Part shown: positions 3,110 through 51,559 of the stretch, in pieces
How positions within the stretch are numbered: position 1 is the stretch's first letter
Layout: each line of letters begins with the position of its first letter
Assembly: GCA_050084515.1 (NCBI GenBank)
Contig: CM114271.1
Coordinates: forward strand, 44,020,001 to 44,084,000
Direction of reading: 5' to 3'
Source: Blasia pusilla
Lineage: Eukaryota
Length of the DNA stretch: 64,000 nucleotides
Position numbers and translations under genes: made by a program
The notes under the pieces: generated by a model
The model's database searches: none
What the model was told of the DNA's origin: nothing
The model's input: the letters and a program-made list of their open reading frames with translations, nothing else

Positions 3110-4000
3110 TCAAACTGGATATAGTCCAAAACTCTTTATATATATGGGATACATCCATTGGCTTGTTGGAAGTGTATCAAGAGAGGTAATGGGGGGAGGT
3201 GTACTTAGCATGACAAGTTTCAAGCTTGACACACTAAAAAACAATGTGGTGGTTGCACCTCGTACAAATCTATCATCCATATAGCTTATGCTCGTAGGTA
3301 CCATTTTCAAGTTTGGATCTATTTTTCCATCGAAGTTTGATCAGAAGTAGACATGGCGAGAATTGTGCATATGACCCTTCGAAATCATATCATCTTGCCA
3401 CTCCAATATGAAGACTCTAGGTTGGTAACACTTCACAAATATGCAAAATCTAACTTGAAATAAACAAAATTTTTACATATGTTTAGAATATTCTTGTTGT
3501 CTAGTGGGAACCATGTCAAAAGGGTGGGAAGAAGGAGGGGGCATGAGTGGATTGGGATTGGGAGGAGAGGAGGGGGGTTTCAAGAATGACATATACCACT
3601 CGATCTTTGGAACAAAAATCACAAACCAACATGGTGGATGCATCTCTTGTAGATCCACACAACATACAACTCAAGGTTGTAGGTACCACGACCAATCTTG
3701 GATCTACTCTTCTATCCAAGTTTAGAACTTGTTGTAGCGAGAAGCTGCCACAATCCTCGAAACCATATTGTTACCCCCTCTTTAACACCTAGGATCGTCA
3801 ATGCTCTTTGGTGTGAGTACATATAATATCATCTCTAGGATGAAATGAGAACCTCCTCCACAAGGGGATACATCAATTTATCCTTGTGCTAAGTTCTCAT
3901 ATGCCGTGGCCATAACTCTGACAAAACTTCCACCCCTTGAGAACATTCTTGCACCCATATAAAAGGTTCATCAATGTTTAACACCTTCTCCATATCACGT
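3110..4000 (-). pseudogene. Highly decayed integrase C-terminus/PHD relics of the PHD-Gypsy family (two successive fragments)
   Basis: Translations VDPRLVVVPTTLSCMLCGSTRDASTMLVCDFC (3516-3719) and ...RGATTTLF...PPITSLDTLPTSQWMYPIY (3110-3310) align by eye with the PHD at 17396-17534. Confidence 0.7.
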
Positions 4001-5076
4001 TTAGTAGTTGTACGTTAGTCCGGCTCAGACGTTTGTGGTGTAGTGATCTATCATTACACATCAAAAAGTATTTTGGAATTGATGTTTAGGATGCTTGCCA
4101 ACTAAAGCAATATTCCATAGTCGACTATGGTAATTGGAGGCCCTAATCCCTCAAATGTGCTCACTACAAGCCATATTTGGGTAATACCCACTTCACCATT
4201 AATATTTCTTTCTCTACTAAGTGATCCACCTCAAGATGATCCCTAGATGTGGCGTAGTGATCTATCTGTGTTTGATCACACAAGGCCTTAATTTTCTTCT
4301 AGACTTGGTACCTTGGTTGGTTAACAACTCTCATGATAGATTGTGATCTCTTTGAACACGATTAAAAAATGCATAAGTTGCTCTTTCATTCGCCTTGTTT
4401 GGTAATGCCACAAATTTAATTTGAATTAATTCACTAAGAGAAATGATTTACTAAGATCAAGACATACCTATGATCATGCCTTGTCAATAACAAAGGTCCT
4501 AAAATGTATAGCCCCAACCTTATCCTTATAACCTAATCCCAAAATGGGCAAAGGATATAAATGTGGTGTTAGAGCATTGTAAGATGTTCACACTTGATCG
4601 CATACCATGAATTCGACTATAAACCACAAAATACCCTAGATGTCAGATGCCCAATATTGAACATGGAATAAACTATAAGTATGCTTTACTAAAAAAATCC
4701 CAAACTTATGGTACACATGTCACATAACACTTTCTTGCTTAGAAGAATGAGGCACTACTCGCACTCTAGTATTCTACCACCCTCCCACACGAACGAAATG
4801 TGTGACTTATGTGTGTCCCCTTCCACTTCCTTGCACTCAATATGCTCACTATGATATAACCACCATGTAAAACAAAACATCCTCATTGTCATAGACATTA
4901 CTACTACCATTTTCCTTCTCATAGTCCCCTACATGTGAGGACTCACCATCACATTCCCATTCTAAATTTGATGTATGGAATCCAACATGGAGATTTAACG
5001 TATTAATAGGAACTTCAAGATGATGATATACAACCAACACCAAGATGTAAAGTTTTGAAGGCCTTTGCATGCCCAA

Positions 5077-6650
5077 TGTCACATCTGTTAGGATAGATCG
5101 ATGAATTCATGGTAGATTTTCTTTGAGGATATTGGAGGACACTCTGTAGAGATTAAGAATGACATGTTGAGGCCTTGGGTAACTTGAGAGAGAAGATTCT
5201 CCCTTTGTTTTGGCTGATTTAGTGCTATATATATAACCTTATTAGTTCAGGTAATTAATTTTTATAAGTAGAGTTGACTTTCTACTTTGGGAACTGGCCC
5301 TTGACCGCCCCCTCCCTATAGCAGGTCAAGAGTGGCGTGCGGAAGCGTTGCCCGATTTCAGACATAAATTGAGTATGGGGCAAGTTTCTTCATGATAGTG
5401 CTCCCGCCAACACCTTTTAGCTTGCTAGATTTATGTTGCACAAGTTTGGAAATTTTTGTGGAAGAAGTCAATGCGGAAGCATTGCTAGACTCTTTGTAGG
5501 AGTTGAGATCACGTGCTGTAGAACAATCGCTGCCTGTTTGAAATGAAAGGTCAGATGAAGGAGTTGATTTAATGGCATTTTAGATCAAGAAGTCATGTAT
5601 GTTTTCAAAGAAATGATCCAAAATTTTGATGTTGGAGCTCACAGTTGTGGTTATTTTGGTGGGGTTTCCATAGCCAATGTGTGAGGGTAGAAATCCCGAA
5701 ATCTTGTGACTTCCTTTCATGGACTTAGAAAGCAAAAATCCTTTATTTTAGTACATAAGACAAGCAAGGTAAAAGTGATTTGAGGATGACAGTGAGTGAA
5801 AACTTTATTTAGTGGGTGTTGATCCAAGATTTGTGGGGCTTACTAGAGTATGAGCCAAATTTGAGATAATTTTAGTGCGTTGACCCTTTTTTAAAGTGTT
5901 AGTGGAGTGGGAAAGAAAAGATATTGACTTTAGAAGACGGTTAAAATAGAGGCATTTTACTAATGTATGACTTGACACAATTACTATTGATCTTTTTTGA
6001 CCATCAATTGTTCAACCATTATCGCCTCTTTGATGACCGTCAACTCTTTGATGGCTATTGTCAACGGATGGGGTAGAGTTTCGAGGTATGATTTGCCATG
6101 CATGGTGACTTTTAGCCACTTGACATTGATCGAGTATTGTTTTGTGACGCTCGTAGCCAAAATTTATGGTTGATGTATTTCTGTGTTGTGCCGCTCACGA
6201 CCGCACCACACCGTCTCGATCGTAGAGCCGTACCAACAGTGAGGACCGAGGCATGTATTTTAGATAAAAGTGGGGATGCATTTTTTACATGTGTCACATT
6301 CAATCATCGAGTGTCGTGCCTTTTATAACCGTGTTGTGCCGCACCACACCACTGTATCCATAGTGCAGATCGAGGAGGTTTGGGCATCGTCAACATCAAG
6401 GAATACAACTTGCTGAGTGGAGGAATTTCTCTTCGAGACCAAGTTGGGGTTGAGGTTGGCAATTGCAGAGGAGCAACACATACATTGTGTTGCAGAGGAG
6501 CAACACATGGATTTTGGGATATTGGGTAGTTATATGGGATTTTGGGTTTTTGTATATGGATGCTAAGAGCATTGTTGACATATATGGTTAGGGGACATAA
6601 AAATGTGTAGGGTGTCCAAAGTTGAGAATATGTTATGTCGATGAGACAAT
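5077..6650 (+). mobile_element. 5' end of a subfamily-2 DNMT/PHD-Gypsy copy: truncated A repeat plus leader
   Basis: Starts TGTCACATCTGTTAGGATAGAT (the A start). About 5330-6650 matches the reverse complement of the leader at about 60340-62320. Interrupted at 6651 by another copy. Confidence 0.75.
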
Positions 6651-8439: not shown

Positions 8440-8596
8440 TGTCGTATAATAAAATCACCCACTATGTAAACTCCTCTATCATTAAGTGTGAGAGAGAGTT
8501 TTATTAGTATTAAGTAAATTAGCCTAGGAAAATGAAATTTCCATGTTTAAACCTCTTTAGGGTGGGTCATTTGTGCAGGCCCAACTTTAGGAAAAG

Positions 8597-9077
8597 TGTC
8601 ACATCTGAGTAGCCGATAGGCCGAGATCTATCGAGGATAGGGCATAAGAGCCAGCGGACTATCTTGAGTGTAACTTTGTCCCACGGTGTCGGATGAGGTT
8701 GATGATAGGTCCATTGTGTCAGGAACGTCGTTCCTGACAACTTTCATGTTGAGGTCTTTTACAGTCAGGTGACTTGTTGACCAGGTCACCCGCCCTTGGT
8801 AACATGTGTGCGCCGGTTACCAAGGGAAGGGCTATTTTTAGGGAAAGAGCCTTTTGGCTCTTCCCAACCCTATATAAGAGAGGAAGATGGCTTTCCTAAG
8901 CCATCTTTCTCATGTTGGGCCGTTGGAGCACATCCCTTGTATGTGTGTGAGCTAGGACTAGGGTGCTAGCGTCCGGATTCCTTGATAGCACAGGGTGGAC
9001 GAGGCTCGATATGCTGATGTAGATTGAGGAGTGGAGTTTTAGGCCGGGTGTGCCGGTTTTACTACTCTTTATTTTTA
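8597..9077 (+). repeat. Terminal repeat A1 of element 1
   Basis: Near-identical to 17754-18231. Starts TGTCAC. Contains TATATAA at 8871-8877. Confidence 0.92.
8871..8877 (+). promoter_or_regulatory. Putative TATA box of the element promoter in repeat A
   Basis: CCCTATATAAGAG is conserved in A1 and A2 (about 18025). TATATA-like runs sit in a similar position in subfamily-2 A repeats. Confidence 0.55.
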
Positions 9078-10480
9078 CATGAGAAAGATGTCAGGGGGCT
9101 AGTGGAAATTCGTTGTTTGCAGGTAGGCAAGCAAGTTGCCTTGGTCAGGAGCCCCTGGAGACGTGTGTGTGACGTTTTATGTGTCATTTTTCTGTTCGGA
9201 AGGCCGTGGGCGGAAGCGCTGTCCGTTTTTCTCAAATTTTGCTGGTGCGGATTGATGGGGGACAGCAGCAGGGTGTAGCGCAGGTTGTGTCGGCAGGAGT
9301 AACGTCGTCTTATAGCTCGTGGAATTTCGGGAGTACCCAGGGAGAAGAGTTAGAGCTTGCAGCCGCCAGGGGGCTGTCAAGTAAAGCGGCCGGTTTAGGG
9401 TTAGGGCGCAGCGGCGACGGGCGACGGACGGGAGCCGACGGGCGGCGACGGGCGTGCACTCCCCCCCTCTCACCTCTCTCCTCCCGCAGGGAGGCCACGG
9501 GCGGACGGCCCCCCCCCCCCGTATTTAGGGCCCAAGGGGCCCGCATAGGGCCGGGGGCCCAAGTTCCCCCCCCTCCAACGTGGTAGCACGGACCATAGTC
9601 GGTCGGGCAGTTGTAGCGAACGTGGTTGGTAGCACGGACGAGGTCGGTCAGGCGAGCGCAATGGCGCATGGGCAACGTGATAGCAGGGAGGACGTCGACG
9701 TGTTGAGTGACCGACAAGTTGAACAGCGGGCGTGACATGATGTTTTTGGGGCGTGACAGGGCGTTGCAAGAGTTTACGATGGAGGGGCTGTGTGCATGAT
9801 GCCGACGGGTTGTCCGCATCTGTTGACGGGAGGATCGACGTGTTGGTCGAGGGGAGTGTTGTGTTGCGGAGATTGTCATCTCATGTGGAGGAGTGCATGT
9901 TGACGGTGTAGCAGGTTGGAGGGCGTGATCAGGTTACCCATTCGAGTCCCTTTTCCCGCACTTGTCGTGTGTGATTGAGAGTGCTGGGTATCAGGTAGTA
10001 GCTGGTGCTAGATGGGTGCAGTGATGGTGACGGGTGTAGATTCTTTTCATGTGTAGCATGTTGGTGGATATACGGCGGTTGCCGAGTAGGGGTCGCGTGT
10101 ATGACCCGAGAGAGTGTCGCTAGGTTAGGTGAGTCAGTTGGGAGGCTCATGGTGAGCCCGAGTGATGAGCGTGCGTGAGGCCGAGTATGTCATCACGGGA
10201 TTGATGTTAGCATAGGTGAGCTAGTGAGGCGTGTGGGAGACTCTCGGTGAGTCTGAGTGCTTGAGCGGGTGAGATAGGGTTTGTCATCACGGCGTTCTTC
10301 CAAGGTTCAGAAGAACGGGGTAGTGCAAGCAGTAGTAGTGGAGTGACACGGAGTGGAGTGAGATACCGAGGGGTTACCAGTGAGGAGCTCCCTCGACATC
10401 TATCTGTGACTGGATCGTCATCACTGGACACTGGGTCTAGTGACGAGATTATCGACAGAGACAGTAGTACTTGGTAGGAG

Positions 10481-12354
10481 ATGGACGACATGGGCCATTG
10501 GGGCATGCGTCTTTTCTCGAGTGCAGTGGGCACCATCGACTTAGATGATTTCATCCAGGAGTTTGACACATGGTGCGACTTCCAGGAGATACGGACCCTG
10601 ACACGGTTCAACCCTTTCATGGCATGGAAGGGGTTGTTCTAGCACTTGGAGGGTCCTCCGATGGATGACTACATGGAGTTTCGATCACTATATTCAGTAG
10701 AGATTGATGCCTGGAGGATGTATTGGGCTCCAGGATATGTGTCCACTAGTGGTCGCGAGGCACATGATGGGATTGTGAGAGGAGAGAGACCCACACCATC
10801 AGCCCGGAGACTAGATGGAGAGGAGGGCAGTGAGATAGGCGATGTGGCAGAGACCTCTGGTGGTAGAGGGCCACCCAGCTTCAGCCCCACAGTGGAGTTC
10901 TTCCGACAGTTGGGGAAGAGCTACCAGGGCGTACGCACCGACAAGCTGAAGAGTCTACAGGATTTTCAGCGAAAATCGGGTGAGAGTCTGAGAGAGGCAT
11001 TCACACACATGAGGAGGCTGATCATGATCATTGCTACGTTTGGAGTGACTGAGGCGCAGTCAGTCCAGTATTGGTATGGGGTTCTGGACCGAGAACTACG
11101 GAGGAGAGTCCGAGATGCGGTGCTGATTCACACACCGAAGCCCACATTGAAGGTGGTCTTTGAGTTGTCTGAGCGTATTGAGCTCAACATGAGTGAGGAG
11201 TAGGTAGTGACCGCTGGATTTTCTCGAGAGTGGACGGGTCCACGAGCGACGGTGACCCCACAGGTGCCACAGCGAGCACCAGTACCACGGGAGTGGGCCA
11301 GTGTGCCTAGAGATCAGGGCGGGTACCATGAGCCTATGAGGCAACGACACACACTTACATATGTTGCCCAGCAGGGAACGATGTGGTCTTGTTGGACGTG
11401 TGGAGGGGCCCATAGGCAGAGAGACTTCCCACAGCATGGGAGAGGACCACCAGCGCCTCCGATTGCTCAGGAGCCATAGAGGATGGCCCCACCACAGCAC
11501 CAGTGTGACCATTGCCATAGATATGGTCACACTAGGGATAGATGTTTTGACCTTCGCCAAGGGGCACGTCCAGGGTAGGCCGAGGGCCTGGGGGCGGTCG
11601 TCTTGGAGGAGGTTGGGGAGTTCTTCCTGGACGTGGTGGTAGAGGACCACCACCAGCCAGAGGAGATGGAGCAGGAGCACCAGAGCCGACACTTCTCTCA
11701 CGCATCGATCAGTTGGAGCAGAGGATTGCTGCCATGACGATGATGCAGCTTAAGGAAGGCACGGAGCTGCGAGCAGCTAGTGTGACTCCAACTTCTACCT
11801 CTTACCCTGACCCGGGTGAGGATCTCGCCAGTATGGGATTCATGTGTAGTGCAGCCCAGGTTGAGGCAGCTGCAGTGGTGACTTGGGGTGCTGCAAGAGG
11901 CACCGAGCCATCGAGAGGTGGAGTTGAGATTGACCCACCAGAGGGGACAGATGGGCGGCAGGCGAGGGTTCCACAGTCGTTCACATTGTCGAAGGCACTA
12001 CACACACCATCGATGGTGCCTCGACGACCAGCGGTGCCTACAGTTCAGGCATCTACGTCGACGTCACGAGGAGTTGGAGTGACAACTCCTATGCCGGCTC
12101 GAGTGGAGTCAGTATCGACTATAGTGTTGGAGGTGGCCACTAGAGTGAGTCAGACTCCGCTATTTTCCGCCATAGAGTTGGCGACGTTGGGAGTTGGACC
12201 AGCTGAGGTGTTTCGGTTGGCCGCCACGTTATGTGAGCGTGGAGAGATGACTGCTTCTTGTTCAGAGGTAGTTGAGGAGGTGGTGGACTTGCCCTCAAAG
12301 AGCGGTCTTTGGGGCGTTCCCACACAGTCATGGCATCTTGGCGGCGGTTGGTAG
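10481..12354 (+). pseudogene. gag: Gag of element 1 (capsid-like region plus two zinc knuckles), disrupted
   Basis: DLDDFIQEFDTWC; LQDFQRKSGESLREAF (retrotransposon gag motif); CWTCGGAHRQRD and CDHCHRYGHTRDRC knuckles. In-frame stops at about 10640 and 11201. The true start may be near 10288. Confidence 0.8.
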
Positions 12355-12860
12355 ATATGCCAGCTCGACCGGCCATAGAGCGAGTAGGGGTGACACCTAG
12401 AGTAGTGTTACTGGATAACAGAGCTGGAGTATTTCGCTTGGTTAGTCCGATGGGGATGGTATACCACCCGAAGCGCATCCTACTTGATTCGAGAGCGCAA
12501 CCCTTGATGTTAGGGAAGGCGGCGTGTTTAGCGTTGGGGTTACGGAAGGCCGACATTGAGCCTTGTCCCTTCCGATCTGAGACCTCGATTGGGGCGTATC
12601 ATTCACTCGAGATATGACTCGACAGAGATTGTTGTCGAGTCCAGCCAGAGCATGCGACGGATAGTGCTATGGTGCGCGACACGTGCGATTACGACACCAC
12701 CGAGTAAATGCGATGTGTTGGTGGGGAGTATAGTGTTATATCCCCTAGGATTCATCCTTGACTTCTGGGAGGAGACCGTTGCTTATCGGCCAGGATGGCG
12801 GTCAGGTGACGGCCGGATGAGTCAGTTACCCGTGCAGTTTGCGGGACGAAGTGGTTGATC
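12355..12860 (+). pseudogene. Aspartic protease domain of element 1
   Basis: ILLDSRAQPLMLG (D-S-G-like active-site position) and the downstream DVLVG motif; frameshifted. Confidence 0.75.
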
Positions 12861-13200
12861 ACGAGGCGAGTCTGTGACCACGTTGGCAGCTTTCACACGT
12901 AGTGTTAGCTGGCCAGGAGAGTTGTTGGAGGGGAACGCACATGCGGAGGATGTCCTAGGAGTGGATAGTCCCACGGAGAGACAGGCCATGGCGGGTGTCT
13001 CTTCCCATGTTGGCGAGGCCTCTTCACCATTATGGGGTACGACTTGGGAGCTACAGAGGAGTGTCGATGACCTCGTGAGGCAGGCGTGGAGTCATGTTTT
13101 TATCCCAGAGCAGCGAGAGTCACGTGGCAATCGGGCTCTTGGAGTGGAGACGATGACCCCACTAGATACCACACCTGTTGTGTGGCAGTGCCCAGAGGAG

Positions 13201-14150
13201 GGTGTTAGGGTGTTAAATCTCTTCGGAGGGATTAGCACCGGATTGGCGGCACTATTGCAGGCGGGCATACGGGTGCATCAGTACCTTTATGTGGAGAGAG
13301 ATGAGACCGCGCGGCGAGTATCATTACGTCACGTGGCGAGATTGATCCAGAGGTATACTGAGTTTTTGTCGGTATCTGCAGTACGGGGATACCAGCATAT
13401 GCTACCCGCCGACATCTCTTTAGTGGGGGCGCAGGATCTGGATAGAGTTGGCACCATTCATTTGGTGATTGCTGGATGGCCATGTCAGGGTCATTCATCA
13501 GCTGGCCGAGGATTTGGATTGCAAGATCCGAGGTCAGGAATGTTTTGGGAGATGCTGCGAGTATTACGACACTTGCAAGAGAGTCAGATATGTTCTCCAG
13601 CGTACATTTTGGAGAACGTGCCGTTGTTAGGAGACACTCGTGCACATGTGATGACGAGTGTACATCATGTGAGGTCCTGGTTGGGACCTGCTGTGTTGTT
13701 AGATGCAGCGAGAGTTGGGGTCACGTGCCCATCGTCCACGACTGTGGTGGGCGAACCTGATACCATCAGAGGTACTGAGTCGAGCATACGGTGGAGTCCA
13801 GAGAGCACCACATCTCACAGTGGATGCTATTTTGGGCTCAGGGCGTCGATCTCAGGTGGTGACACGGGATGATAGACCATCGTTGGCCATGGCCAATAGG
13901 GTGGGGGAGTTGAGGGCAGCCTTACCTATGTTGGTGAGCTTCCCAGCATCCCATGCCTTTCGTCAGGGAGGGCCATGCATGATTTGGGATGAGGTGACCG
14001 GAGCATTGGAGGAGCCTATAGCAGATGAGCACGAGCGCGCCATGGGGTTCACTACCGGTACTACGGTGGTGCGAGGGATGATTGAGGCATCACGGAGACA
14101 GGTGTTGGGGCAAGCGATGGACCTCAACTGTCTCACATGGATAGTACTAG
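13201..14150 (+). pseudogene. DNMT3/DRM-like C5 cytosine DNA methyltransferase domain embedded in pol (one frameshift at about 13718)
   Basis: Motif I VLNLFGGISTG (from 13210), II YLYVERD, IV LVIAGWPCQG (PC at 13480), DPRSGMFWE, VI YILENV (13612), VIII AHRPRLWWAN, IX EHERAMGF, X RRQVLGQAMD. Confidence 0.93.
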
Positions 14151-14452
14151 GTATGGCTGAGCAGAGACGGATGCGAGTGTCATCCATGCCGTCACGTCCA
14201 CGAGTTGGACCACTGCCTACAGGGTCTGTACATGCATTGGTTGGGGGCGAGATGAGGAGAGATAGGCACCCATGGACTTCCTGGGACGTCGTACCAGCAG
14301 AGAGTGCAAAGGCGGCTAGAGTAGCACATGTTCATTTTTCGGATGTGGAGCATGGTGTAGGAGGTCAGAGTGGAGTGGCTGTTGTGGAGGTGGCTAGGGT
14401 TGCTACATAGCAATCAAAGCCGGAGGATGCGTCCTCTCCGAGTGAGGTCACG

Positions 14453-16020
14453 ATGGAGACTTGGGAGCCTGTGATAGGTCTCAAGTTGATAGGAGGAGAG
14501 CGACGGCGAGTTCATAGGTTTTTGAGAGGGCATGTCAGTTGTTTTGCCTCCAGTATGAGAGACTTGGGTACGCTGAAGGGTCCCGGGATACGGATTGAGT
14601 TGGCTAGTGATACGCCGATCTTTCGTCGACCCTATAGGTATTCTGATATGAAGTGAGCCTTGATTCAGAGCGGCAGGGAGAGGACTTGTTGGAGGCAAGA
14701 CTTGTGGAGTTATCACATGGGGAGTATGCATCCGCCACGCAAAGTGATGCGGCGAAGAAGGATATGTATGGAAATTGGACGGATAGGCGGATGTGTGGAG
14801 ATTACCGTCCTATCAACCGCAGCAGACGAGGTCGATTGGTACGCCATGCCTACTCCCGAGGAGATCTTTGATACGGTAGGGCATGCAAAGATCTTCAGAT
14901 ACTTTAGATCTCCGTGTTGGCTATCATCGCCTTCCTATCAAAGGTTGGAGGACAGGAGAAGACAACATTCTAGGGATAGATCGGTTCGGGAGAGATTGCT
15001 TGTATCGGTGGCGGTTCTTACCATTTGGATTGAAGAACGCGCTGCATGGAGTTTCGAGAGAGTGATGCATAGGATTCTGGCTGGCTTGGATTTTGTACGA
15101 TGTTACATAGATGATATTCTTATCTTGATTCCACGGTTGAGGAGCATGAGCGACACTTGGAGGAGGTGTTTGGCGATTGCGTTACATGGACTGAAGTTAC
15201 ATCCGGCAAGTGCAGATTCTTTCAAGAGCAGATTGAGTACTTGGGACACACCATATACCCGAGTGGGTTAGGCGTTCAGACGAAGGTAGAGGCTATTCTT
15301 GCAGATTCCACGCCCTCTGAGATGTGAGTCGAGTCAGAGCATTTCTTGGACTCGAGAACTTCTATCGACGATATGTCAAGGGTTTTAGTGCGATCGCAAA
15401 GTCTTTGACCTTGTTGACAAGACTTGATCAGGTTTGGTTGTAGGGAGATGATCAAGAGCGAGCATTTCAGGAGCTCAAGGATAGGTTGACGTCCTCACCC
15501 ATTTTACAGAGACCGGTTAGGGGTCGCCCATTCCAGTTACATACGGATTGGAGCATGTTGGGTCTAGGAGCAGTGCTTACTCAGAGGGATGACGAGGAGA
15601 GGGAGTTCGTTGTGGCTTACGCGAGCCGATCGAACAACATTGCAGAGGCAAAGTACAGCTCCTACGAGGGAGAGTGCTTGGCTGCAGTGTGGGCCGTGGC
15701 ACATTTTAGGTGCTATTTATTCGGAAACCCTTTCACACTTATCACTGATCATCAGCCGTTGATGTGGTTGATGGAGTCCGACAAGCTTACGGGAAAGCTT
15801 GCCAGGTGGGCTCTATTACTACAGGAGTATGAGTTTGAGGTGGTTCATAGGCGAGGTCGGCTGAACCAGGATGCGGATGGGTTGAGTCGTAACCCATGTC
15901 CGAGTCAGAGAGACGTCAAAGGAGCTCTATGGCACGGAGAGAGTGATGAGGAGATGGTGCCCGGTTGGCATGCATCTGCCTATCTTTGTTGGTTGACTAT
16001 GGTAGGTCAGCCACAGGTGA
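14453..16020 (+). pseudogene. pol: Reverse transcriptase and RNase H of element 1 (frameshifted)
   Basis: RMCGDYRPIN, LDLRVGYH, LPFGLKNA, CYIDDIL. RNase H: LHTDWSMLGLGAVLTQ...VAYASR...YSSYEGECLAAVWAV...TDHQPL. Confidence 0.93.
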
Positions 16021-16159
16021 TGACTCTAGTGGTGGGGTTGGATGATGAGTCTTTGGATCCGGAGGTTAGTGAGGAGGCGGATGGTGTGGTCGTGATATCC
16101 ATGACGACGTGGAGGTTGTGGAGTTCTTGCAAGACCTTTGGCGTCATTAAGAAAGTACA

Positions 16160-17537
16160 GTGAGTGCTAGGGAGCGCGATCAGATCCTACAGAGAGCCAA
16201 GAGGTTCAGGTGGGAGGGGACTCACATTTTGCGGGTATGGGGAGATGGTAGGATACGAGTTGTACCTTATCCTTCCCAACGAGCACGTGTAGTGCGACAT
16301 GCCCATGAGGAGTTGGGACATTTCGGAGTAAAGCGTTGACTTACTCCAGGTTCAATATTGGTGGCGCGGCATGCATACTTTGGGTACAACAGATTTGTGG
16401 CGGATGTATGGTATGTGACATAGTGCGAGCATCCTTCAATGCTCCCACTCATGATTACATCCTTTGCCGATTATGGGTTTAGGTTATCGGTGGAGTTTAG
16501 ACTTTGCGGGACCTTTGCAATTGTGTGAGGCGTCATCATAGGTACGTGTTGGTCATGGTGGAGCATTTCTCCAAGTGGATAGAGTTGGTGGCACTACCAG
16601 ACAAGGCGAGCAAGGGAACAGCTTATGCGTTTCTAGATCGTATGCTTAGTCACCTTGGTGCACCGGCGGAGGTGTTGACTGACCAGGCTACCGAGTTCAG
16701 GGGAGAGTTTCAGGCCTTGTGTGATCAGGCGCTCATAGATCACCGCACCACGTCCAGAGATCATCCTGAGGCGGATGGGTTGGCGGAGAGAGTGGTACAG
16801 ACGGTGAAGAGAGGATTGCGCAAGTATGGCTTGCAGCGGGGATAGTTGAGGGAGTGGGACCTACAGTTGCCATGGTTGGCTATGGATTATCGCTTTAGTC
16901 GGCAGGCATCCTTGGTGTCATTTTCACCGTACTTTTTGCTCTTTGGGAGAGAGCCAAATTTACCTGCAGTGACTCGACGTGACATGGCGGAGGTGTTAGA
17001 TCTTGATGATCCAAATGTGTGGGTACAAGCATGTTCTCAGAGGGCAGAAGTTTTTCATAGAGTTATGCCTATGGCCTTTGAGAACTTAGCTATTGCCCAA
17101 CATAGAGATACATTGAGGTACGCGACCATTCGTGGAGGAGGTTATCATCCAGAATTAGGAGGTTTCATCATGGCGATTACGTGTATTTACAACAGGCAGC
17201 ACCCACGACGCTAGATGTCACTGCAGGGCGCACGATCCTACGTGTGCGCGAGGTATTACCGACCGGAGTCCTCATATTGGAGGGATGGGATGGTATGGTT
17301 TGGAAGGATCATGTGCGCAATTGTGCACCATGTCATCTTCCGAACGTAGATGGGACGGTGGATCCGAGCTTGGCAGTGGTACGTGCATGCTTGAGGTGTA
17401 TGTTGTGCGGATCTGCGAGGGGTGCAGCCACCATGTTGGTATGTGATGGTTGTTCTCGAGGGTGGCATATGTCATGTCTGACCCCCCCTCTTGATGTGGT
17501 TCCCACGGGACAATGGATGTGTCCGAGATGTGTATAG
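16160..17537 (+). pseudogene. pol: DDE integrase with C-terminal PHD finger of element 1
   Basis: HAHEELGHFG (HHCC start), WSLDFAGP, VEHFSKWIE, VLTDQATEF, HPEADGLAERVVQTVK. C4HC3 PHD CMLC...VCDGCSRGWHMSCLTPPLDVVPTGQWMCPRC, then stop. Confidence 0.93.
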
Positions 17538-17603
17538 GGTAGTAGGTCATGTCAGAGAGATGTGATATTTTCTATCTGGAGTTAGGGGGATCCAACTTCC
17601 AGC

Positions 17604-17614
17604 TAGGGGGGCGA
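17604..17614 (+). other. Polypurine tract immediately before repeat B1
   Basis: TAGGGGGGCGA followed by TTG. The same motif precedes B in four other copies (7416-7427 minus, 36521-36531, 47252-47262 minus, 57908-57918). Confidence 0.8.
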
Positions 17615-18368
17615 TTGTGTGATCTCCATGTATATGTATGAGTTGATTTTTGTATATGTGTGGATCGACCCGTGTGTGGGGAAGATCGATGTTGTGTGGT
17701 GTAGATGTGACGAGCGATGTATGTTGTGTAGCGATATGTATCGCACGGCAATTTATCACATCGAGTAGCCGATAGGCCGAGATCTATCGTGGATAGGGCG
17801 TAGGAGCCAGCGGACTATCTTGAGTGTAACTTTGTTCCACGGTGTCGAATGAGGTTGAGGATAGGTCCATTGTGTTAGGAACGTTGTTCTTGACAACTTT
17901 TATGTTGAGGTCTTTTACAATCAGGTGACTTTTTGACCAGGTCACCCGCCCTTGGTAACCTGTGCGCAGGTTACCAAGGGAAGGGCTATTTTTAGGGGAA
18001 GAGCCTTTTGGCTCTTCCCAACCCTATATAAGAGAGGAAGATGGCTTTCCTAAGCCATCTTTCTCATGTTGGGCCGTTGGAGCACCTCCCTTGTATGTGT
18101 GTGAGCTAGGACTAGGGTGCTAGCGTTTGGATTCCTTGATAGCACAGGGTGGGACGAGGCTCGATATGCCGATGTAGATTGAGGAGTGGAGTTTTAGGCC
18201 GGGTGTGCGTTTTTACTACTCTTTATTTTTGTTGTGTGATCTCCATGTATATGTATGAGTTGATTTTTGTACATGTGTGGATCGACCGGTGTGTGGGGAA
18301 GATCGGTGTTGTGTGGTGTAGATGTGACGAGCGATGTATGTTGTGTAGCGATATGTATGCGCACGACA
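17615..18368 (+). repeat. 3' composite repeat B1(17615-17750)-A2(17754-18231)-B2(18232-18368) of element 1
   Basis: ttgtgtgatctccatgtatatgtatgagttg...gcgatatgtat(g)cgcacg(g/a)ca occurs twice, flanking a full copy of A. Confidence 0.92.
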
Positions 18369-19587
18369 AAAGAGAAAATAAATAAAAGATGGATTATAAA
18401 AGTAAAGTAGTGGGATTGCTGCTTTAATAAAAGAAAAACAAAAGTAGTCTTGGTTGGTGGCTAGGATAGTTTGGGTAGTTTGGAAGATATCAAGTGAGTT
18501 AAGGAGGATATTTTTGAAGAGATAAGAGGTAATCTACTTGTGTCAAAATATGATTGACAAAGCCTTGAGAGGAAGCAATGTGGCACAAGATAAGATAAGC
18601 CCTATTTCATACTCTTGTGGATCTCTTGTGAGTATATAAAGACGAGGGACCTTCAAGGGTTCATCACCTTCTACTTCACATCTTGAATTTCTTGCATCAC
18701 TCTTGAGTGGATGGCTTTGGAATTGCTTGATTTTCCAATGAGAGTGGATTATCCTTCTTGGGAGAGTAACTTGGCCATGGTCTATTATTTGAGAGGTTTC
18801 TAGAGTGTGGTATGTGTGGAGATGAGAGACTAGTCACCTTAGAAAAGTTTAGTCATACTAAAGATAATGAATTTTTTGGCTTGATATTTTGCCAATGAGA
18901 GTGGATTATCCCTCTTGGGAGAATTGTTCCGCCAAAATCCAATCTTGAGGAGAGTAGAGAATGTCCGTCAAGTATGGATAGGGATAGACCACGAGTTGTG
19001 CCCTATTTTCCTTTCCTTAACTCGTACCACGTGAAGGTTCTCTTTGTAGATAGGTGTTGGTTTACTCGCTATCTATTTTATCATTTTCGGGAGGTTTTCA
19101 TGAACTAGGTAATGCAATCTCCAACTTCCGTGATTCTTCCTATTGTCAGGTATGGGAGGCCATAGGATTGTATGTTGTATGTTTTTATATAAAAATCCAT
19201 GGATCTTAATAGACCTACTCAAGTAAGGTTTAATACAGTTGTGCAATTTTCCTTGTGTACAAACGTAAAGTACTTTATAGAGACTTCATAGTTAAGAATT
19301 TCGGGGTTCGATGTTATGAAGAAGTGATCGCCTCGGCACTATCATTCGTGATTGCTGTCGTGAGAGAATGGAGGGTTTATATAATAATTTTGTACTGAAA
19401 AAGGAGAACTACTTATAGAGTTTGGCTTGCATTATCCACGCCTATTGCAGCTAGGAGGTCCGCCCTTACTCTTGGAAAAGCTCTCGACACGACAAATGGT
19501 GCTTTTGCTGAGAGCTCTTTGAGGTGGTTGATTTTGTTTACAAGTTGGAGTCTTATCGAGTTGACTACTTTTGGTAGTACTTCATCA

Positions 19588-21787: not shown

Positions 21788-23944
21788 TCTTTTTACAGTA
21801 ATTGAATGAGTCCGATCCCCAAGAGGATCACGATTATGTGGAAAGAGAGTTCAAGATGGCATTTATCTTGCAATCGTTGTAGTTAAGTGTTTACAATCCG
21901 GATTCAATCATTTGTCAGTGTATTCTTCTCTCTATTAGTACCAATATTTCTTTCCTTGATTCTCTCATGTGGAATTGAATTCACGCTCAGGTAGATCTTC
22001 ACTCAACATCAAAGAACCTCACAGAGACCTCAACAAGAAGCTGGCTTCTCCTACTTTCAAAACTCAATCCGTCTAGGCAGGCTACTCTCTGTCGAACATA
22101 TTTTTTACAACTCCTTGTTGATTATTCTAATGATGGAAGAGTTCTCCTGATTCACTCTTTACTTTGCAGACCCAATAAAAATTCTCAAACATAGGCATCG
22201 CACATCAAAATGAAGAAATGAGTGCTTTACTACATCAAGAATGAGAAAGCTTCAAAGTGTTATACAAGCTCGAGAGGGTAGTACTCCCTTGCTCGGACCA
22301 TTCCTACAACATAAGGACTTCGTGAAAGAATGATGATGATAGCTACTTTCATGCTTCTTAAATATCTTCCGAGGCTGTAGTAGGTCCAAAGATCTGAAGC
22401 GTCTCTTACGAATCTAGTGTCTATTGAGAGTTTGTAACCACCTTAATCCACGGTTCTCTTATCTTTTTCCTATGATCGCTATGAATCCGCTGGGCGTAAC
22501 TGTCCTAACTTCCTTTCTGGTTCAAAAAGTTGCGCCTCTTCCTAATTTAAATGTTCTAATAGTGTGCCGCTTGAAATCACTTCGAGTCTTAGTTTCACTT
22601 CGCTGCAAAGTCTAAACTTCTTCTTCTTCCCTTGAGGACGAAGCGCTGCATTCTTCGCTCTTGTTCTAGGTGCTTCGCTCTTCGTGCTTCGCTGAAGAGC
22701 GAAGTTCTTTATATACTCACAGGATTCTTCCTCTTCGTCTTCATCATGCTTCGTTCAAGAGCGAAGCACTTAATTAACAAGCTCTTAATAAGGCTTGGTT
22801 ACTGCATTTCCATCTCCTCTAAGGCAAATCCTTGATTTTCCACCTCTCTGCTTTGTCCTAGGAGCTTTGTGATCCATTTCAATATTACTCATTCTTCCAA
22901 TTCACAAACATAATATCTAAAACAATCTTATATGTACAATCTTCACTTCATAGAATCTGTATTCCTTGAATCAAAATGTATAAATCTCTAAAAGTACAAA
23001 ATCTCGGGTATCACAATTGAGTTGGAAAGGACTATTCCTCATGGAGGTGGGACGAGCGTGACTAGAGCTAGGGGAAGAGGAGAAAGAGTTGGTGAGATGT
23101 ATGCATTGGTGTTACATATATCTGATCATGAATCAGATTAGATAGAATGAGTTCATATTTATATCTTTGTAATGTATATAAGTATTAGGTTCCTCTCAAT
23201 CCAGATTTTTTGTGGGGTACTCCTCATTTGTTGTAAATACATTTTCAATAAATTTCAAAATATTCCACTGAGGAGACTTGTGAATGTGAGCCGGTCACGA
23301 ATGTTGTTCATTAAGTGAGTTCATGAAATGGATGAAAGTTTTCTCTTGACTTATAAGTGCTTGGATAAGATGGAGGGTACCATAATTGAAATGTTTGTTT
23401 GATATTAATTTAAATATTTTAAATATTTCAAACTCCTCAAAATTTACTAAATCATCAAAATAAATAATTTTATTTTATTTATTGAAAGATGGGGATTGGT
23501 AAAGGGATGTTTTTTTTTCCAAAATTAATGAAGGAAAATATATATTTGAATTGAATTGTAAAGGAAAATTATTTATGAATTGTGTTTAGTGAACAATATT
23601 GCATGGGATAGAATTTGAAAGGGATTTGGATGGAATAGAAAAAAACAATATTTTTTTATTGAATAATATAATAGGTGAATATAAATATTACAAAATTTAT
23701 AAGAAAATGGAAATATTAGATAAAAAAAATTATTTGTGCCTTGATTCATATGTAATGGAAAGGGAAATTGAAGTTTAATGAAGAAGGAAAAGATTTGCTT
23801 TGAATTTTATGGAAGGGTGAATTTACTTATTGGACTAGGATATCAATTACATTTGATTTCAGGACACTAATTACTTACAAGAGTGAAATGTAATAACTCT
23901 TCTAAGATTTTATAGAATAGTGCAGATGGTCTTCAAGTTATATC

Positions 23945-26620
23945 TATCACTCTTGCAAAGTCTCAACCCAAATGAAGTTGTGACCACAACTTTAAAAATG
24001 ACCTTTTAGACCTGCAACACTAAACCTTGAATGAAAAAAAAAATCTTTAATTTTTCATCTTGTCCAACGTTTCCATCTTGAGCTGAAATTTGGCCCACAT
24101 GGTCTCCAAGGTACATGTAGTACTATTGCTAAGCTTCATGCCAAATGGAGTTGGGACCTCAAGCTCAAAAATTTCCAAGTCCTTTTAGGACCTCAACCAT
24201 TAGACCTTCTCTCAAAATAATGTTTTTTATTTTTCATCTTGTCCAACTTTCTCATCTTAAGCTGAAATTTGGCCCACATGGTCCCCAAGGTTCATGTTCC
24301 ACTCTTGAAAAGTTTCAAGCAAAATGGAGTTGGGACTACAAGCTCAAAATTTTCTAAGTGTTTTTAGGACTCGAGCCATCACACATTCTATGAAAATAAG
24401 GTTTTTTTGTTTTCATCATCTCTAACTTTCTCATCTTGAGCTCAAATTTGTCCAACATGATCCCCAAGATTCATGTTCTATTCTTGCCAAGTTTCAAGAA
24501 AAATGGACTTGTGAGAAAACCTCACAAATTAATAACTCCTTTTCGAACCCGAACCACCAGACTTTCTCATTTTTCATCTTGTCCAAATTTTTCATCTTGA
24601 GCTCAAATTTGGCATACATCATCCCCAAGGATCATGTTCTACTCTAGCCAAGTTTGGAGCAAAAATTAACAAATCCTTCTTTGACTCGAACCATGGGACC
24701 TTTTATCAAATTAAGGTTTTTTTCATTTTTCATCTTGTCCAACTTTCCCATCTTGAGCTGCACTTTGGCCCATACAGTCTCCAAGATGCATGTAGCACTC
24801 TTGCCAAGTTTCAAGAAAAATGGAGTTTGGACCTCAAGCTCAAAAATTGGTAAGTACTTTTTTGACCCGAACTATCATATCTTCTATGAAAATAAGGTTT
24901 TTTCATTTTTCATCTTGTCCAACTTTCTCATCTTGATCTCAAATTTGGCCAACATGATTCCCAAGGTTCATGTTATACTCTTGCCAAGTTTTAAGCAAAA
25001 TGAATTTGTGAGAAAAACCTCAAAAATTAATAACTTCTTTTTGGACCCAAACCATCAGACCTTTTATCAAATTAAGGTCTTTTAAATTTTCCTCTTGTCC
25101 AAATTTCCCATCTTGAGCTACAATTTGGCCCACACGGTCTTCAAGGTGCATGTATCATTCTTGCCAAGTTTCCAAAAAAAAAGGAGTTGTGAGCAAAACT
25201 TCACAAATTAATAAGTCCTTTTTTGACCCAAACCATCACACCTTCTATCAAATTAAGGTTTTTCTTCATTTTTCATCTTATTCAATTTTCCCATCTTCAA
25301 CTGAAATTGGGCACACATTTTTCCCAGGGTGCATATTCCACTCTTTCCAAGTTTCAAGAAAAATGGATTTATGAGCAAAACCTCACAAATTCATAACTCC
25401 TCTTTGGACCCAAACCATCAAACCTTTTATCAAAATAAGGATTTTTCTATTTTCATCTTGTCCAAATTTCCCATCTTGAGCTCCATTTTGGCTCATAGGG
25501 TCTCTATGGTGCATGTAGCACTTTTGTCAAGTTTCAAAAAAAATGGAGATGAGACCACAAGCTCAAAAATTTCCAAGTCCTTTGACCCGAACCATAAGAC
25601 CTTCCAAAGGGGTTCATTTTTCATCTTGTCCAACTTTCTCATCTTGAGCTGAAATTTGGCATACATAATCCCCAAGATTCATGTCCTAATTTTTCCAAGT
25701 TCCAAGAAAAATGGAGTTGTAAGCAAAACCTCACAAATTAATAACTCTTTTTTAGACCCGAACCATCAAACCTTCTAATTATAGAAATAATGTTTTCTCA
25801 TTTTTCGTCTTGTCCAAATTTCTTATCTTGAGCTGAAATTTGGCTCACATGGTCTCCAAGGTTCATGTTACACTTTTGCCAAGTTTCAAGCAAAATGGAG
25901 TTGTGACCATAAGTTCAAAAATTGGCAACTCCTTTTTTGACCTGAACCAACAAACCTTGAATAAAAAGAAGATCTTTTTATTTTTCCACTGGTCCAACTT
26001 TCTCATCTTGAGCTGAAATGTGGCCCATATGATCTCCAAGGTGCAAGTAGCACTCTTGCCAAGTTTTAAGCAAAATGGAGCTCGGAGAAAAACCTCAATA
26101 ATTGGTAAGTCCTTTTTGGACCCAAATCATCAATCCTTGAATGAAAATAGGGTTTTTTCATTTTTCATCTTGTCCAGATTTTCCATTTTGAGCAAAAATT
26201 TGTCCCACATGGTCCCCAAGGTGCATGTTCCACTCTTGCCAAGTTTCAAGTAAAATGGAGTTGTGAGAAAAACCTCACAAATTAATAAAGTGTTCACAAA
26301 TTAAGAACTGAAAAACCTCACAAATTAATAACAAATATCATGTTGTCCAAATTTTCTATCTTGAGGTGAAATTTGGCCCACATGGTCTCCCAGATGTATC
26401 TAGTAGTGTTTCCAAGTTTTACCCAAAATGGAGTTGTGACCAAAACCTCAAAAATAGTAAGTACGTAACCCTAAACCATTAAACCTTCAATGCAAATAAG
26501 GTTTTTTCATTTTCCATCATGTCCAACTTTCCCAAGTTGTCTTTGTAGCACTCTTGCAAAGTTTTGAGCAAAATGGAGTTGTGACCATGAGCTCAAAATC
26601 ACACTTGCCAATTGGACCTT
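23945..26620. repeat. Diverged tandem array, ~180-bp monomer, about 15 copies
   Basis: The motif ttttcatcttgtccaa...atcttgagctgaaatttggccca...ctcttgccaagtttcaag recurs at about 24051, 24231, 24411, 24727, 24907, 25088, 25269, 25449, 25801, 25981 and 26161. Confidence 0.92.
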
Positions 26621-28131
26621 CAATGTAAAAACGAATGCTTTATTAGCGAGAAGGTTATAAAAGGAATGTCATAAAAATGACATTCTTACAATAGTCAACA
26701 AAAAATAAGTTTTCTACAACTATCTACTAATCTGTTTGACTAAATTTACTAATTACTCTTCTAGTCTAGGTTGATGGTTGGGTAATTAATATTTTAATTC
26801 TAGTGGATTAAGATGTAAGCGGTAATTTGACGGCTCAATAGTTCGAAGTAAGGTGGATCAGCGACAAGTTCCTATTTCAGTTGTTTCATCGTCGGAGGAA
26901 ATGTATGAAATATCCATGCCATGATTGATTGGTTGAGAATTTGGAACCATAGGTATGAGAACATCATTATTGTTAGGCTCATCAACTAAGTCCACCGTTT
27001 CAACGCTTAAATATTATGGAGGAGTATCCCGCATAGGTTCACTAGACTCGGTGGAACAATTCTGAACTCCTATTGGTGCAAAAATCTGAGGGTCGTAGGT
27101 TGTATTAGGAGAAGTGTTGGGCAGATTGGATTCGCTTGAAGCTCTCCGTTGTTGCTCTTCCTCCTGCTCTCAAATCCAATGTTCCATTTGAATCTTCCAA
27201 GCCTCTCGGAGTCAAAATTTTCAGATTTTCCGATATGAGTATCCTCTCTCCCTTTGATGCCATGAATTCCGCATATCACATCCGCCTCCTTTAGGTCCTC
27301 ATCTTGCAATTCAAGGTTATCTTCATGATTACTATCACGGTTTCTTGCATGCAAGCTAGATTCACTGCCATCTTCTACTACCCTTCTAGCTTGTTCTTGT
27401 CCATCCCTTTCAGAAAAGTATTGCTCATACAAGAGCGCTTCTCTTGATTTTCGAGAAACACCCTTGTCTGCAAATGGTGAGTTTGTGTAGATGTACACCA
27501 AATCCCTGGCATGCTTGTTGGTCAATTTATTCCTGTGCTTGTTGTGGATGAAACCATAACTACTCCAATTTCTCTCTGTTGAAGAAGATGAAACCACTTG
27601 TGCTAATATGGACTTAGCCACAGAGCGCAATGTTGGTGCACCTTGACTGTGCATGCTCCACCAATAAGAGGGGCCAAGTGAATCAACTACTTCCCTACCA
27701 AACTCATCCACAAATAGTTCTTCATGGTTCATAATGTTGCCAAACTCTTGCAAGCAAGTAGCCACATAAAAATTAGCCTTGGTGACATAGAGGTCATGCA
27801 CCCCCTTTGCATAGAGTTTCAGATATTGTTTGAAATCTCTTATGCACTCATCATTTGAAGTGACGTCTTGAACAATATCAAGAAGATTGTAAGGGGCGAG
27901 AATGTAGCCTATTGCATGTAACTTGTTGTGGATAAGTGCCCACCACCTAGAAATAACATCAATCATCTCCGTAGCTCTAGACATTGTGACAAAATAATCG
28001 CGACACCTTCCACCCACACCGGGCCATGGAGTTACAAGAAAAGAACGAGTCTCTTCCATTATCTAAAAAATATGGCGATAAATACATGCCGTCATTGCTT
28101 TATCACCATCACACTCTCTCAATAGAATAAT

Positions 28132-31100: not shown

Positions 31101-32933
31101 TACAGGTCAACATGTATCAGCTCTAGAGGAGCCTTTGCTCTATTGCTGGACTCTTGTGGAAATGGTTGTCGGTGTTGCTTGCCCATCATACAAGCTTCAC
31201 ATATATCCGACACTCCAAATTTTTTTGATAAATCAGCAACCATGCGAGATTTCTACATCTGACTTAGTAAAAAGCTTAGGTGATCAAATCTTTCATGCCA
31301 CAACTTACTTCTACTAAGATCTATACCTACACTTTTCGTGAAAGCATAAAACTCATAGATATTTCCACGTTGTATACCTTCACCCACTACTTTCCCATTG
31401 GCATCCTCAATGACTCCTCCAGATTTCTTGAAACGAACGTCTAAGCCGCGATCACATAATACTGCTATTGAAAGAAAATTGCGCTTCAATTCTCGTACGT
31501 ACATTACATCAATTAACTCCTTTTCATCTCCTTTTTGTGAGACTAAAGAAATTATGTCTTTCCCTTCTATAGGGTATTTTGCATTATTCCCAACAATAAC
31601 AACAATGGGCTCCTTTAGAGGCTGTAAGGAGCTATACTAATCCTTATGATTGGTTATATGCCTAGATGCCCCACTATCAAGCATGCATCTTCACTCTTTG
31701 ACTTAGTGGAATATTCTGCCAGTGTGCAAAACTCTTTGATTGCTACCCAAGCATCTATCTCATGTTCTCCCAGTTCTACAAAATTTCCAGACTCCTTCGT
31801 AGGTCTTAAACAACCGTTCTTCTCATCCTGACTCTTCTTTCTACAATTCTTGACATTTGAACTGTAATCCTGATTTTTACCTCTCTGTACGTTGGCAATA
31901 AATGCTGCATCACTTCCCTCTCTTGCTTTGAAGCGTATTTCCTCTTCTACCAACATTGCACTAAATTGTTCAAAAGTAAGTGCCGTGGATCACACTTAGT
32001 ATTCAATGTAGTGACCAAACTGTCATACCTCGGAGAAAAAATCCTTATGCACCGACGTGCCAAATCTTCCCTAGACTTTGAAATTCCTACCGACGCCATC
32101 TCATCTAGAAGATTCTTGATCCTCGTAAAAAATTGCTTCGCGCTTTCTCCTTCTGAAAATTTTTCGGAGGTAAGCTGATTTTCTAAATTTTGAATCCGAG
32201 TCTCATTCCTGGTTTCATACTAATTCTTCAGAATGCTCCACGCCTCAATAGTAGTGAAAAAATCAGTTACATTCCTAACAATCCCATATAGGGCATCAAC
32301 ATTTATGCGTTTCCACGCCAGCAATACAACAGGATCCATATCACCAAATTTTGAACTTTCACAATGTATAGTTAGACCCATCTAACTTCCCTCCACCCAA
32401 CGGAGGAGAGCAAGCACGAACTGGCAAAGAAGTAGCCATCTTTCAAGAGTTTATACAAACAAACTAGATCGCCAAATACAAAATACTAGAAAACGTACTG
32501 CTCTGATACCATGTGTGAAAACAGAATGTGATGAAATCACTGAAATCTATTACAAATCTTGGAGATATAAAGTGGCATCGTCCGTCCGTACGCTCACAGA
32601 AGAGCTTCGATGGAACCTGAACATGAAGATAACTTGACATACGAGAATGCACTACTGTCGCAGCTCCCCACTATTTCACTACTCAAGAAACTAGGGGTTT
32701 TTACCTATTTTTCTTTATTTCTATTAATAGAAAAATTTTGCATCAAGGTGCCTTGCACTCTAATGCAATATAGGATTAGATAATCCTAGTAACGCTAATC
32801 CAAAAACCACCTACGTCATATTACTATGACTCCATCAACGTCTAAGTCTAAACCATCAATCTAGGCTTATCCTCATACAAGGGAGCCGATCGGATTAATG
32901 GTGCTCAAAGAAGTGGAAGTTGAGAATCCAACA
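28132..32933 (-). mobile_element. Complete degenerate Ty1/Copia LTR retrotransposon
   Basis: LTRs 28132-28553 and 32512-32933 (TG...CA, about 422 bp). TSD ATAAT on both sides. tRNA-iMet-type PBS TGGTATCAGAGC (32500-32511 minus). PPT at 28554-28564. Confidence 0.97.
28583..32380 (-). pseudogene. pol: Copia gag-pol (protease, integrase, RT, RNase H) with stops and frameshifts
   Basis: CEACMMGKQHR, LELIHVDL, KWVYKTK...KARLIAQG, LYGLKQA, LYVDDL, TRPDI, KHIEIPFHFVRE, ADIFTKAL; integrase lies before RT. Confidence 0.95.
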
Positions 32934-46591: not shown

Positions 46592-46682
<91 letters not shown>

Positions 46683-51540: not shown

Positions 51541-51559
51541 AGGAAGTTCTCAGCGGCAC

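Follow-up and report, generated by a model that had tools for sequence, protein, structure and literature searches.

Retroelements of the PAT-like, Ngaro and TOC1 type possess a tyrosine recombinase gene but lack one for a DDE integrase, and their replication is thought to use a circle with a B|A junction. Their split direct repeats run A1...B1-A2-B2 (PMC7192593), an order that is drawn for PAT-like and Ngaro elements in the Fig. 1 legend of that paper and also for SymbioDIRS-Dnmt3 (PMC5890265). The closest described system is KnitGypsy-Dnmt3 from Klebsormidium nitens, to which a figure legend assigns the repeat structure of DIRS together with Gypsy domains (de Mendoza 2018, PMC5890265, Fig. 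4c legend); under the later name of streptophyte 'Gypsy-DNMT3', such elements are treated as known in the accessible part of a 2026 preprint (bioRxiv 10.64898/2026.05.21.726589). For KnitGypsy-Dnmt3, the available text mentions neither a target duplication nor primer sites, and proposes no mechanism (PMC5890265), and a limited literature search found no text on the target duplication, the primer sites or the origin of the layout in Gypsy-Dnmt3 elements. Here we describe E1, an element at positions 8597-18368 of a 64,000-nucleotide stretch of DNA from Blasia pusilla (contig CM114271.1, positions 44,020,001 to 44,084,000; hereafter the window), which represents a defunct 'Gypsy-Dnmt3' element of the streptophyte kind comprising gag, protease, Dnmt3-like methyltransferase, reverse transcriptase, RNase H, DDE integrase and PHD finger. 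The layout is thus not new, E1 being a new, bryophyte-like member of a kind already noted: what is new here is a conserved polypurine tract (PPT) abutting B1 and a predicted, covarying self-priming site after A1.

The repeats and ends of E1 were located within 1-2 bases of where the original prediction had placed them. All lie on the plus strand: the 5' end carries A1 as its sole repeat (8597-9076; starting TGTCACATC, with TATATAA at 8871-8877) and no B, and the 3' end is made up of the PPT (cagctaggggggcga, 17600-17614), the adjoining B1 (17615-17750; terminating in ...CGCACGGCA), a spacer ATT between B end and A start (17751-17753), A2 (17754-18230) and, directly after A2 with one ambiguous base at 18231, B2 (18232-18368; terminating in ...CGCACGACA). 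Identity between A1 and A2 is 94.8% over 479 nt, and that between B1 and B2 is 96.4% over 138 nt. The outer termini, TGTC...GACA, are bracketed by the target-site duplication AAAG, read directly on the left (8593-8596) as well as on the right (18369-18372). Paralogous empty sites are also represented in the DNA of run X1, in which contigs stop at 8595/8596 and link this point to 18394/18395; because of these contigs, the left boundary of E1 can be set exactly at 8596|8597. The interior of the element contains many stops and frameshifts.

In spite of this decay, E1 retains Pfam scores for methyltransferase, RNase H, integrase core and PHD finger, all in plus-strand orientation. The gag and protease region (10643-12617) gave no Pfam match in E1 itself and was assigned by tblastn to the minus-strand open reading frame (ORF) 51574-52881 of the window, in which a CX2CX4HX4C knuckle occurs twice and a protease motif, LLDSRAQ, is also present. 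The Dnmt3-like C5 cytosine methyltransferase (12859-13869; PF00145, E=6.4e-10) is found inside pol, between protease and reverse transcriptase in E1 and in its intact relatives, and has DNMT3A/3B/3C and then DRM2 as its best solved relatives. It is followed by a frameshifted reverse transcriptase and RNase H (14435-16160; RT_RNaseH E=1.5e-35 at 15444-16160), the reverse transcriptase part of which matches ORF 54616-55647 (RVT_1, E=1.6e-32), by the core of the DDE integrase that the original prediction had reported (16501-16842; Pfam rve, E=5e-13), and by a C-terminal PHD finger (17397-17534; E=1.5e-11). In the consensus of 16 relatives, the integrase keeps its HHCC columns as well as its D, D and E columns; its C-terminus bears the PHD finger, and no chromodomain was found in this family. 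Three intact relatives (P0015, P0020 and P0156) show the order (CCHC)-protease-DNMT-reverse transcriptase-RNase H-H2C2-rve-PHD. A protein search with the reverse transcriptase ORF returned the liverworts Calypogeia fissa (78% identity) and Marchantia polymorpha (67-76%) at the top, some of the M. polymorpha relatives carrying PF00145, and long metagenome polyproteins as the next-ranked matches; no protein named as K. nitens was among the results of two protein searches. Compared by description only, with KnitGypsy-Dnmt3 as it appears in the available text, E1 shares a Gypsy pol with a Dnmt3-type methyltransferase in the Pol ORF and a DIRS-like repeat order combined with Gypsy domains; it differs in its host, which is an alga for KnitGypsy-Dnmt3 and bryophyte-like here, to judge from the nearest named proteins.

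Taken by its domains, the E1 family belongs with Ty3/Gypsy: it has the order protease, reverse transcriptase, RNase H and integrase, an H2C2 plus DDE integrase, TG...CA termini, a short target duplication and a Ty3-like reverse transcriptase (the best solved match of P0015 is Ty3 Gag-Pol, 7q5b, E=2.2e-94). The one Ty3/Gypsy feature that is missing is a pair of complete, identical long terminal repeats (LTRs), the left of which would begin at the boundary defined by the PPT. With DIRS/Ngaro/PAT elements it has the A1...B1-A2-B2 repeats in common, but neither a tyrosine recombinase nor insertion without a staggered-cut duplication. The repeat order by itself would suit an element of that type moved by a tyrosine recombinase encoded elsewhere. 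Against this, PF00589 gave no match in 28 ORFs of at least 90 aa from both strands of the E1 interior or in the three intact relatives, in agreement with the original prediction, which had seen no such gene; the integrase is conserved with intact-looking H2C2 and DDE parts, the reverse transcriptase is nearest to that of Ty3, and the three complete copies that can be tested all combine TG...CA ends with matching 4-bp target duplications (AAAG for E1, CATA and TACA for two metagenome copies, L019 and L005). To our knowledge, recombinase insertion yields neither target duplications nor TG...CA ends. Movement by a recombinase supplied from elsewhere is therefore largely refuted, and we consider it most improbable.

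In textbook LTR retrotransposition, the integrated ends coincide with the ends that are set by the PPT and the primer-binding site (PBS). A scan of metagenome contigs with an alignment of the 16 relatives returned 80 loci, approximately 20 of them in the E1 lineage. A PPT of the form CCAGCTAGGGGGG(C/T)GA stands immediately 5' of B1 in every family, comprising all copies in the window and metagenome loci L003, L005, L008, L011, L014, L015, L016 and L019. At the other end of the internal region, a PBS of the Tf1 self-priming type (ACATGAGAAAGATGTC, 9077-9092) is predicted from pairing directly after A1 of E1: 15 of its 16 positions pair with a self-primer segment (GCCATCTTTCTCATGT, 8900-8915) that lies 30 nt past the TATA box and would form the 5' end of the genomic RNA, and this pairing is present in the minimum free energy fold (z = -2.86). 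The arrangement recurs in E1, in a second sequence family of the window (family 2) and in the metagenome copies, with the last base of A1 and the next 15 nt pairing with a stretch of A that lies 174-180 nt further upstream and begins 26-45 nt after a TATA-like box. The pairing amounts to 15/16 positions in family 2, 16/16 in L014 and 13/16 in L019, and the sequences involved are unrelated among the three families; within one family, CTTCGAAT/ATTCGAAG in L016 and CTTTGAGT/ACTCAAAG in L014 and L019 differ by two compensatory changes. The complementarity and its covariation, together with a transcription start predicted from the TATA box, suggest a Tf1-like self-priming site after A1. A direct copy of the PBS is also found just upstream of the self-primer, with which it can form a hairpin (window 8878-8915; L019 6005-6030; also in family 2).

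The RNA of Tf1 begins with bases that can pair with a PBS situated right behind the 5' repeat, according to the portion of the source available (PMC7175516). The arrangement predicted for the E1 family is the same, but the family differs from Tf1/sushi elements in that Tf1 has two ordinary LTRs whilst the E1 family has split repeats and a PHD finger. Since a PPT precedes B1 and a predicted self-priming site follows A1, reverse transcription should give an LTR that reads B+A, which is the assignment that the original prediction had put forward as a supposition and which now has sequence support from both signals. The TG/CA ends and the target duplication, on the other hand, are located where A begins and where B ends, and the integrase would therefore work at B|A, inside the B+A LTR.

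At B1|A2, two inverted ends lie against each other as ...GACA-nn-TGTC... (some copies have TATC, and E1 reads ...ACA-nn-TGT...), around a spacer of 2-3 nt that reads AT, GT, GT, GC, AC and TC outside E1, GC occurring at two loci (L008/L015 and L014). Copies are too few to take either a non-random first spacer base (G, G, A and T, in the metagenome family) or the TGTC/TATC alternation at A2 starts as a signal, and derivation of the spacer from the parental flank was considered and found unsupported. Conservation of the repeats between families is confined to the final ~37 nt of B and the initial ~11-25 nt of A. A2|B2 is a plain abutment of A end and B start in all seven joints (with the one ambiguous base in E1), and it coincides exactly with a joint of the two predicted cDNA ends.

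Abutted inverted ends within a circle, acted on by a DDE enzyme, have precedents. Bacterial insertion sequences of the IS3 and IS30 type also have a circle junction of abutted inverted repeats with a 2-3 bp spacer, although these are DNA transposons without reverse transcription and offer an analogy only. In prototype foamy virus (PFV), integrase cleaves the palindromic LTR-LTR junction of two-LTR circles (PMC1180852), and integrase-cut two-LTR circles of HIV-1 are reused for integration (PMC4372172), both as given in the accessible parts of these papers. The likeness to the E1 family lies in a DDE integrase, abutted inverted LTR ends within a circle and the release of integration-competent ends; the difference is that the viral palindrome is the LTR-LTR joint, cutting of which restores the normal linear genome, whereas the palindrome of the E1 family lies inside each LTR, where cutting would permute the provirus. 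The suggestion in the original prediction that such a replication mode had not been described was thus overstated: the layout is in print for KnitGypsy-Dnmt3, circle-junction cleavage for PFV and circle reuse for HIV-1, as far as the available text of these sources goes.

The end structures of further copies in the window support the layout seen in E1. The original prediction had named three other B1-A2-B2 ends, and all of them are real: a minus-strand end of family 2 (7431->6651; PPT 7431-7417, B1 7416-7289, A2 7286-6779, B2 6778-6651), a plus-strand, family-2-like PPT-B1-A2-B2 end (36516-37291, right flank CCAA) and a minus-strand PPT-B1-A2-B2 end of family 2 (47266->46028). For the last of these, 46413 had been taken as the terminus, which is not the true end, as B2 is split by an insertion of ~350 bp at 46076-46426 and ends at 46028. 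This insertion has a T run at its minus-strand end and is bracketed by two ATGTTGTGTAG-like stretches; it is possibly a small non-autonomous element. A fifth 3' end in the window, on the plus strand, consists of PPT-B1 (57903-58045) and runs straight into a gag fragment of minus-strand orientation. The two A-only 5' ends named previously, at 5077 and 63024, are likewise real: that at 5077-5332 (plus strand) starts with TGTCACATCTG, has CCAA as left flank and lacks the 3' part of A, and that of family 2 (63024->62493, minus strand) is followed by the PBS CAAAGAGAGAA with 15 of 16 positions paired. To these can be added a third, partial 5' end on the minus strand (63347->63155), which has lost the start of A and keeps the order of A then leader.

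Comparable structures were found among the metagenome loci. L019 is complete, with A1 at 5851-6189, B1 at 14492-14606, A2 at 14609-14946, B2 at 14946-15060, ends TGTC...GACA and CATA on both sides; L016 has the same A...B-A-B order as E1 with a truncated B2; L008 and L015 represent one locus with B1-A2-B2 and were counted once; L010 shows A2-B2 following an internal deletion; and L014 has A1 plus B1-A2 up to the end of its contig. L005 is a unit-length A-internal-B copy with TACA on both sides, and L003 and L011 end in PPT-B followed by flank. Loci L001, L002, L003, L006 and L009 were uninformative on the repeat layout, with no internal repeats and either a contig that was too short or no 5' end; a search for the 5' end of L003 found none. 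The repeats of L038/L037 were dropped, since they belong to a different, unrelated LTR element (L038: repeats 11988-12635 and 3215-3723, 72% similar) with a tRNA-type PBS (tggtatcagagc at ~12600). Altogether, 13 3' ends could be scored: eight are B-A-B, one is at least B-A and four are B-only (L003, L005, L011 and window 57918-58045), with none finishing in A. In all eight 5' ends A is followed directly by the leader, and where the start of A is kept, it directly adjoins flank (7/7). A B-first or A-B-A 5' end was seen in none of these seven (E1, 5077, 63024, L005, L014, L016 and L019), the end at 63347 being unscorable owing to the loss of its A start.

An alternative that bears on this recurrence is that a canonical two-LTR element was scrambled after insertion, or that the layout is an assembly artefact. 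The window does contain a nest of rearranged copies of the E1 lineage (46028-63347), in which the minus-strand gag/protease ORF 51574-52881 stands head to head with a plus-strand segment from DNMT to B1 (52853-58045), whose B1 end abuts a minus-strand gag fragment (58045-58809) that is 77% like 52087-52829; this head-to-head arrangement may reflect nested insertion or an inversion of the self-integration type. Against scrambling or artefact, the same order, the same junctions and 4-bp duplications are found in at least three sequence families, in the window as well as on independent contigs, and chance is excluded because the duplications match in all three complete copies and the layout is present in independent metagenome contigs. 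This alternative is accordingly refuted.

How, then, could such copies arise? In the mechanism that we tentatively prefer, and to which we would assign slightly less than an even chance, reverse transcription would give a linear cDNA B-A-internal-B-A in which the LTR is B+A; its outer ends would be joined to A|B, either within a two-LTR circle or, once the first cut has been made, through end-joining; and the integrase would cut the B|A junction of the PBS-side LTR and insert the DNA as A-internal-B-A-B. The unit form A-internal-B, as in L005, could then stem from a one-LTR circle cut in the same manner or from later recombination between B1 and B2. A further-reaching version would have the whole lineage pass obligatorily through a joined-end two-LTR circle that the DDE integrase opens at the palindromic site within the LTR, such that every provirus is a circularly permuted cDNA and the logic of DIRS elements has been converged upon with the retroviral integrase kept. 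The permutation would place B after A2 so that RNA 3' ends form only at the 3' end: speculatively, the benefit would be that A2|B2 alone puts the GU-rich B downstream of an A end, and a signal for RNA 3' ends would thus work at the 3' end of the element and not after A1. We regard this stronger version as possible but doubtful.

Several observations weigh against integration from joined ends. The circle or end-joining step itself is one that we purely infer from the sequence. A two-LTR circle contains two B|A sites, and use of the other site predicts A-B-A-internal-B, which was seen in none of the seven 5' ends; of the original prediction that a DDE integrase inserts a circle opened at B|A, the layout, the integrase and the B+A LTR are supported, whilst the product of the second site is missing, and the circle model leaves this one-sided use of B|A unexplained. 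Conceivably, collapse of A-B-A by recombination between its 480-bp repeats, which would lie 137 bp apart, hides the other product and also feeds the B-only class. The exactness of A2|B2 in all seven joints is a second difficulty, because host end-joining should be sloppy. Comparison of the repeats within single elements gives a divided result: A1 and A2 of L014 and B1 and B2 of L016 are the nearest relatives of each other and share element-specific variants, but A1 and A2 of L019 and of L016 are no closer mutually than to other copies, so that only two of four within-element pairs favour a common origin at insertion. In addition, all copies seen are decayed, and the RNA reads gave only two weak places at which transcripts might begin or end, leaving transcription start and polyA site without clear positions.

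The RNA reads and the exact joint are relevant to a second explanation, namely that a linear A-internal-B-A-B cDNA is the direct product of reverse transcription and is inserted by the integrase in the ordinary way. Other priming sites would be needed for this, for example plus-strand priming from the conserved B end before A2 or minus-strand priming from an RNA 3' end located exactly at the end of B2. Such a scheme needs no circle, turns the exact A2|B2 joint into a templated one and explains why a single permutation is observed; moreover, the final ~37 nt of B show much stronger conservation across families than the remainder and may do more than bind integrase, and RNA reads do cross B into A, as genomic RNA must, with 54-95 reads per run spanning the junction from B end to A start. 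It is countered by the primer sites: the only conserved ones found, a PPT adjoining B1 and a predicted self-priming site adjoining A1, both imply an LTR of B+A, the end of B is not purine-rich, and nothing conserved is possible downstream of B2, which is host flank. We could also derive no priming scheme that sets B at the right end, and consider this explanation unlikely. As to the reads themselves, they are sense-stranded and low in number, with 1-25x sense coverage that comes mostly from copies of 90-95% similarity. RNA depth peaks at 24-62x over window 18289-18600, where it falls on the conserved terminal ~37 nt of B, which recruits reads of all subfamilies and whose loose ends are family-2 B upstream and family-2 A downstream. 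No joint absent from the genome was resolved in the mapped reads; for the RNA joint 17617->18332, the simplest reading is a subfamily whose B is shorter. The family is very abundant, with a summed word depth in the tens of thousands in DNA run X1.

A third possibility dispenses with the free circle: the integrase would synapse the abutted B|A ends within the linear cDNA, in its left LTR, and insert both, leaving the host to join the free A end to the start of B. This shares the sequence evidence of the circle model, that is, the offset between priming and integration boundaries and an A2|B2 that is the joint of the cDNA ends, and sequence alone cannot separate the two. It entails a transient chromosome break, however, and leaves the choice of the PBS-side junction equally unexplained and the exact joint equally problematic; we view it as rather improbable.

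Finally, the B-only 3' ends could indicate that the integrating form is a unit circle or unit DNA, A-internal-B, with A...B-A-B arising secondarily by homologous recombination with a resident solo A-B copy. Four of the 13 3' ends run from PPT-B into flank or unrelated sequence, L005 has a duplication of its own, and exactly A-internal-B-A-B would result if a unit circle and a solo A-B crossed over within A. The solo A-B copies that this requires were seen neither in the window nor in the loci, however, and the B-only forms are equally explicable by B1/B2 recombination after insertion. A unit copy also cannot found a lineage, because the 5' part of A cannot reach its own RNA, and the nearest-relative pairs of L014 and L016, with their element-specific variants, speak against acquisition of the second repeat from a resident copy. 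We therefore give this explanation little credence. Across elements, no site separates B1 from B2 (three pairs, two of them from the same locus) or A1 from A2 (three pairs); together with the nearest pairs in L014 and L016, this agrees with a single template giving rise to both copies in each cycle.

The remainder of the window contains further traces of the lineage and several unrelated features. CCAA adjoins the A-only 5' end (5077) and also, on the same strand, the B2 terminus at 37291; tentatively, the two could be the ends of one very old element that was extended to 32 kb by nested insertions including E1, which would provide a fourth matching target duplication, but the A copies are only 74% alike and, with ~12 pairings possible, such a match is expected by chance about 1 in 20 times. 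Minus-strand integrase and PHD fragments at 3146-4481, with 34-58% protein identity to E1, represent a more distant lineage member. A perfect 100-bp direct duplication within a CT/GA microsatellite (566-765) reads SLSL... in ORF 3-899, and a tandem array at 23923-26534 has a unit of ~180 bp (also scored as 363 bp) in 10-13 copies with 70-80% matches. By eye, the minus-strand ORF 27070-28062 resembles the C-terminal part of a hAT-type transposase, and ORF 29501-30274, which is flanked by direct repeats of 422 bp (28132-28553 and 32512-32933, 88% identical), resembles a Copia-type reverse transcriptase.

Integrated ends that differ from those set by PPT and PBS thus characterise the E1 family, in liverwort-like as well as in other streptophyte-like sequence, and depart from the textbook scheme. 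Circles of LTR elements are usually regarded as dead ends: if the joined-end route is true, they would be productive intermediates for a whole lineage, and the presence of split repeats would not in itself identify an element as one that uses a tyrosine recombinase. Software for LTR detection that assumes two equal LTRs, bordered on the inside by PPT and PBS, would then mis-delimit or miss a very abundant family, one that carries its own Dnmt3-like methyltransferase and PHD finger and whose insertion and silencing biology is for this reason of interest.

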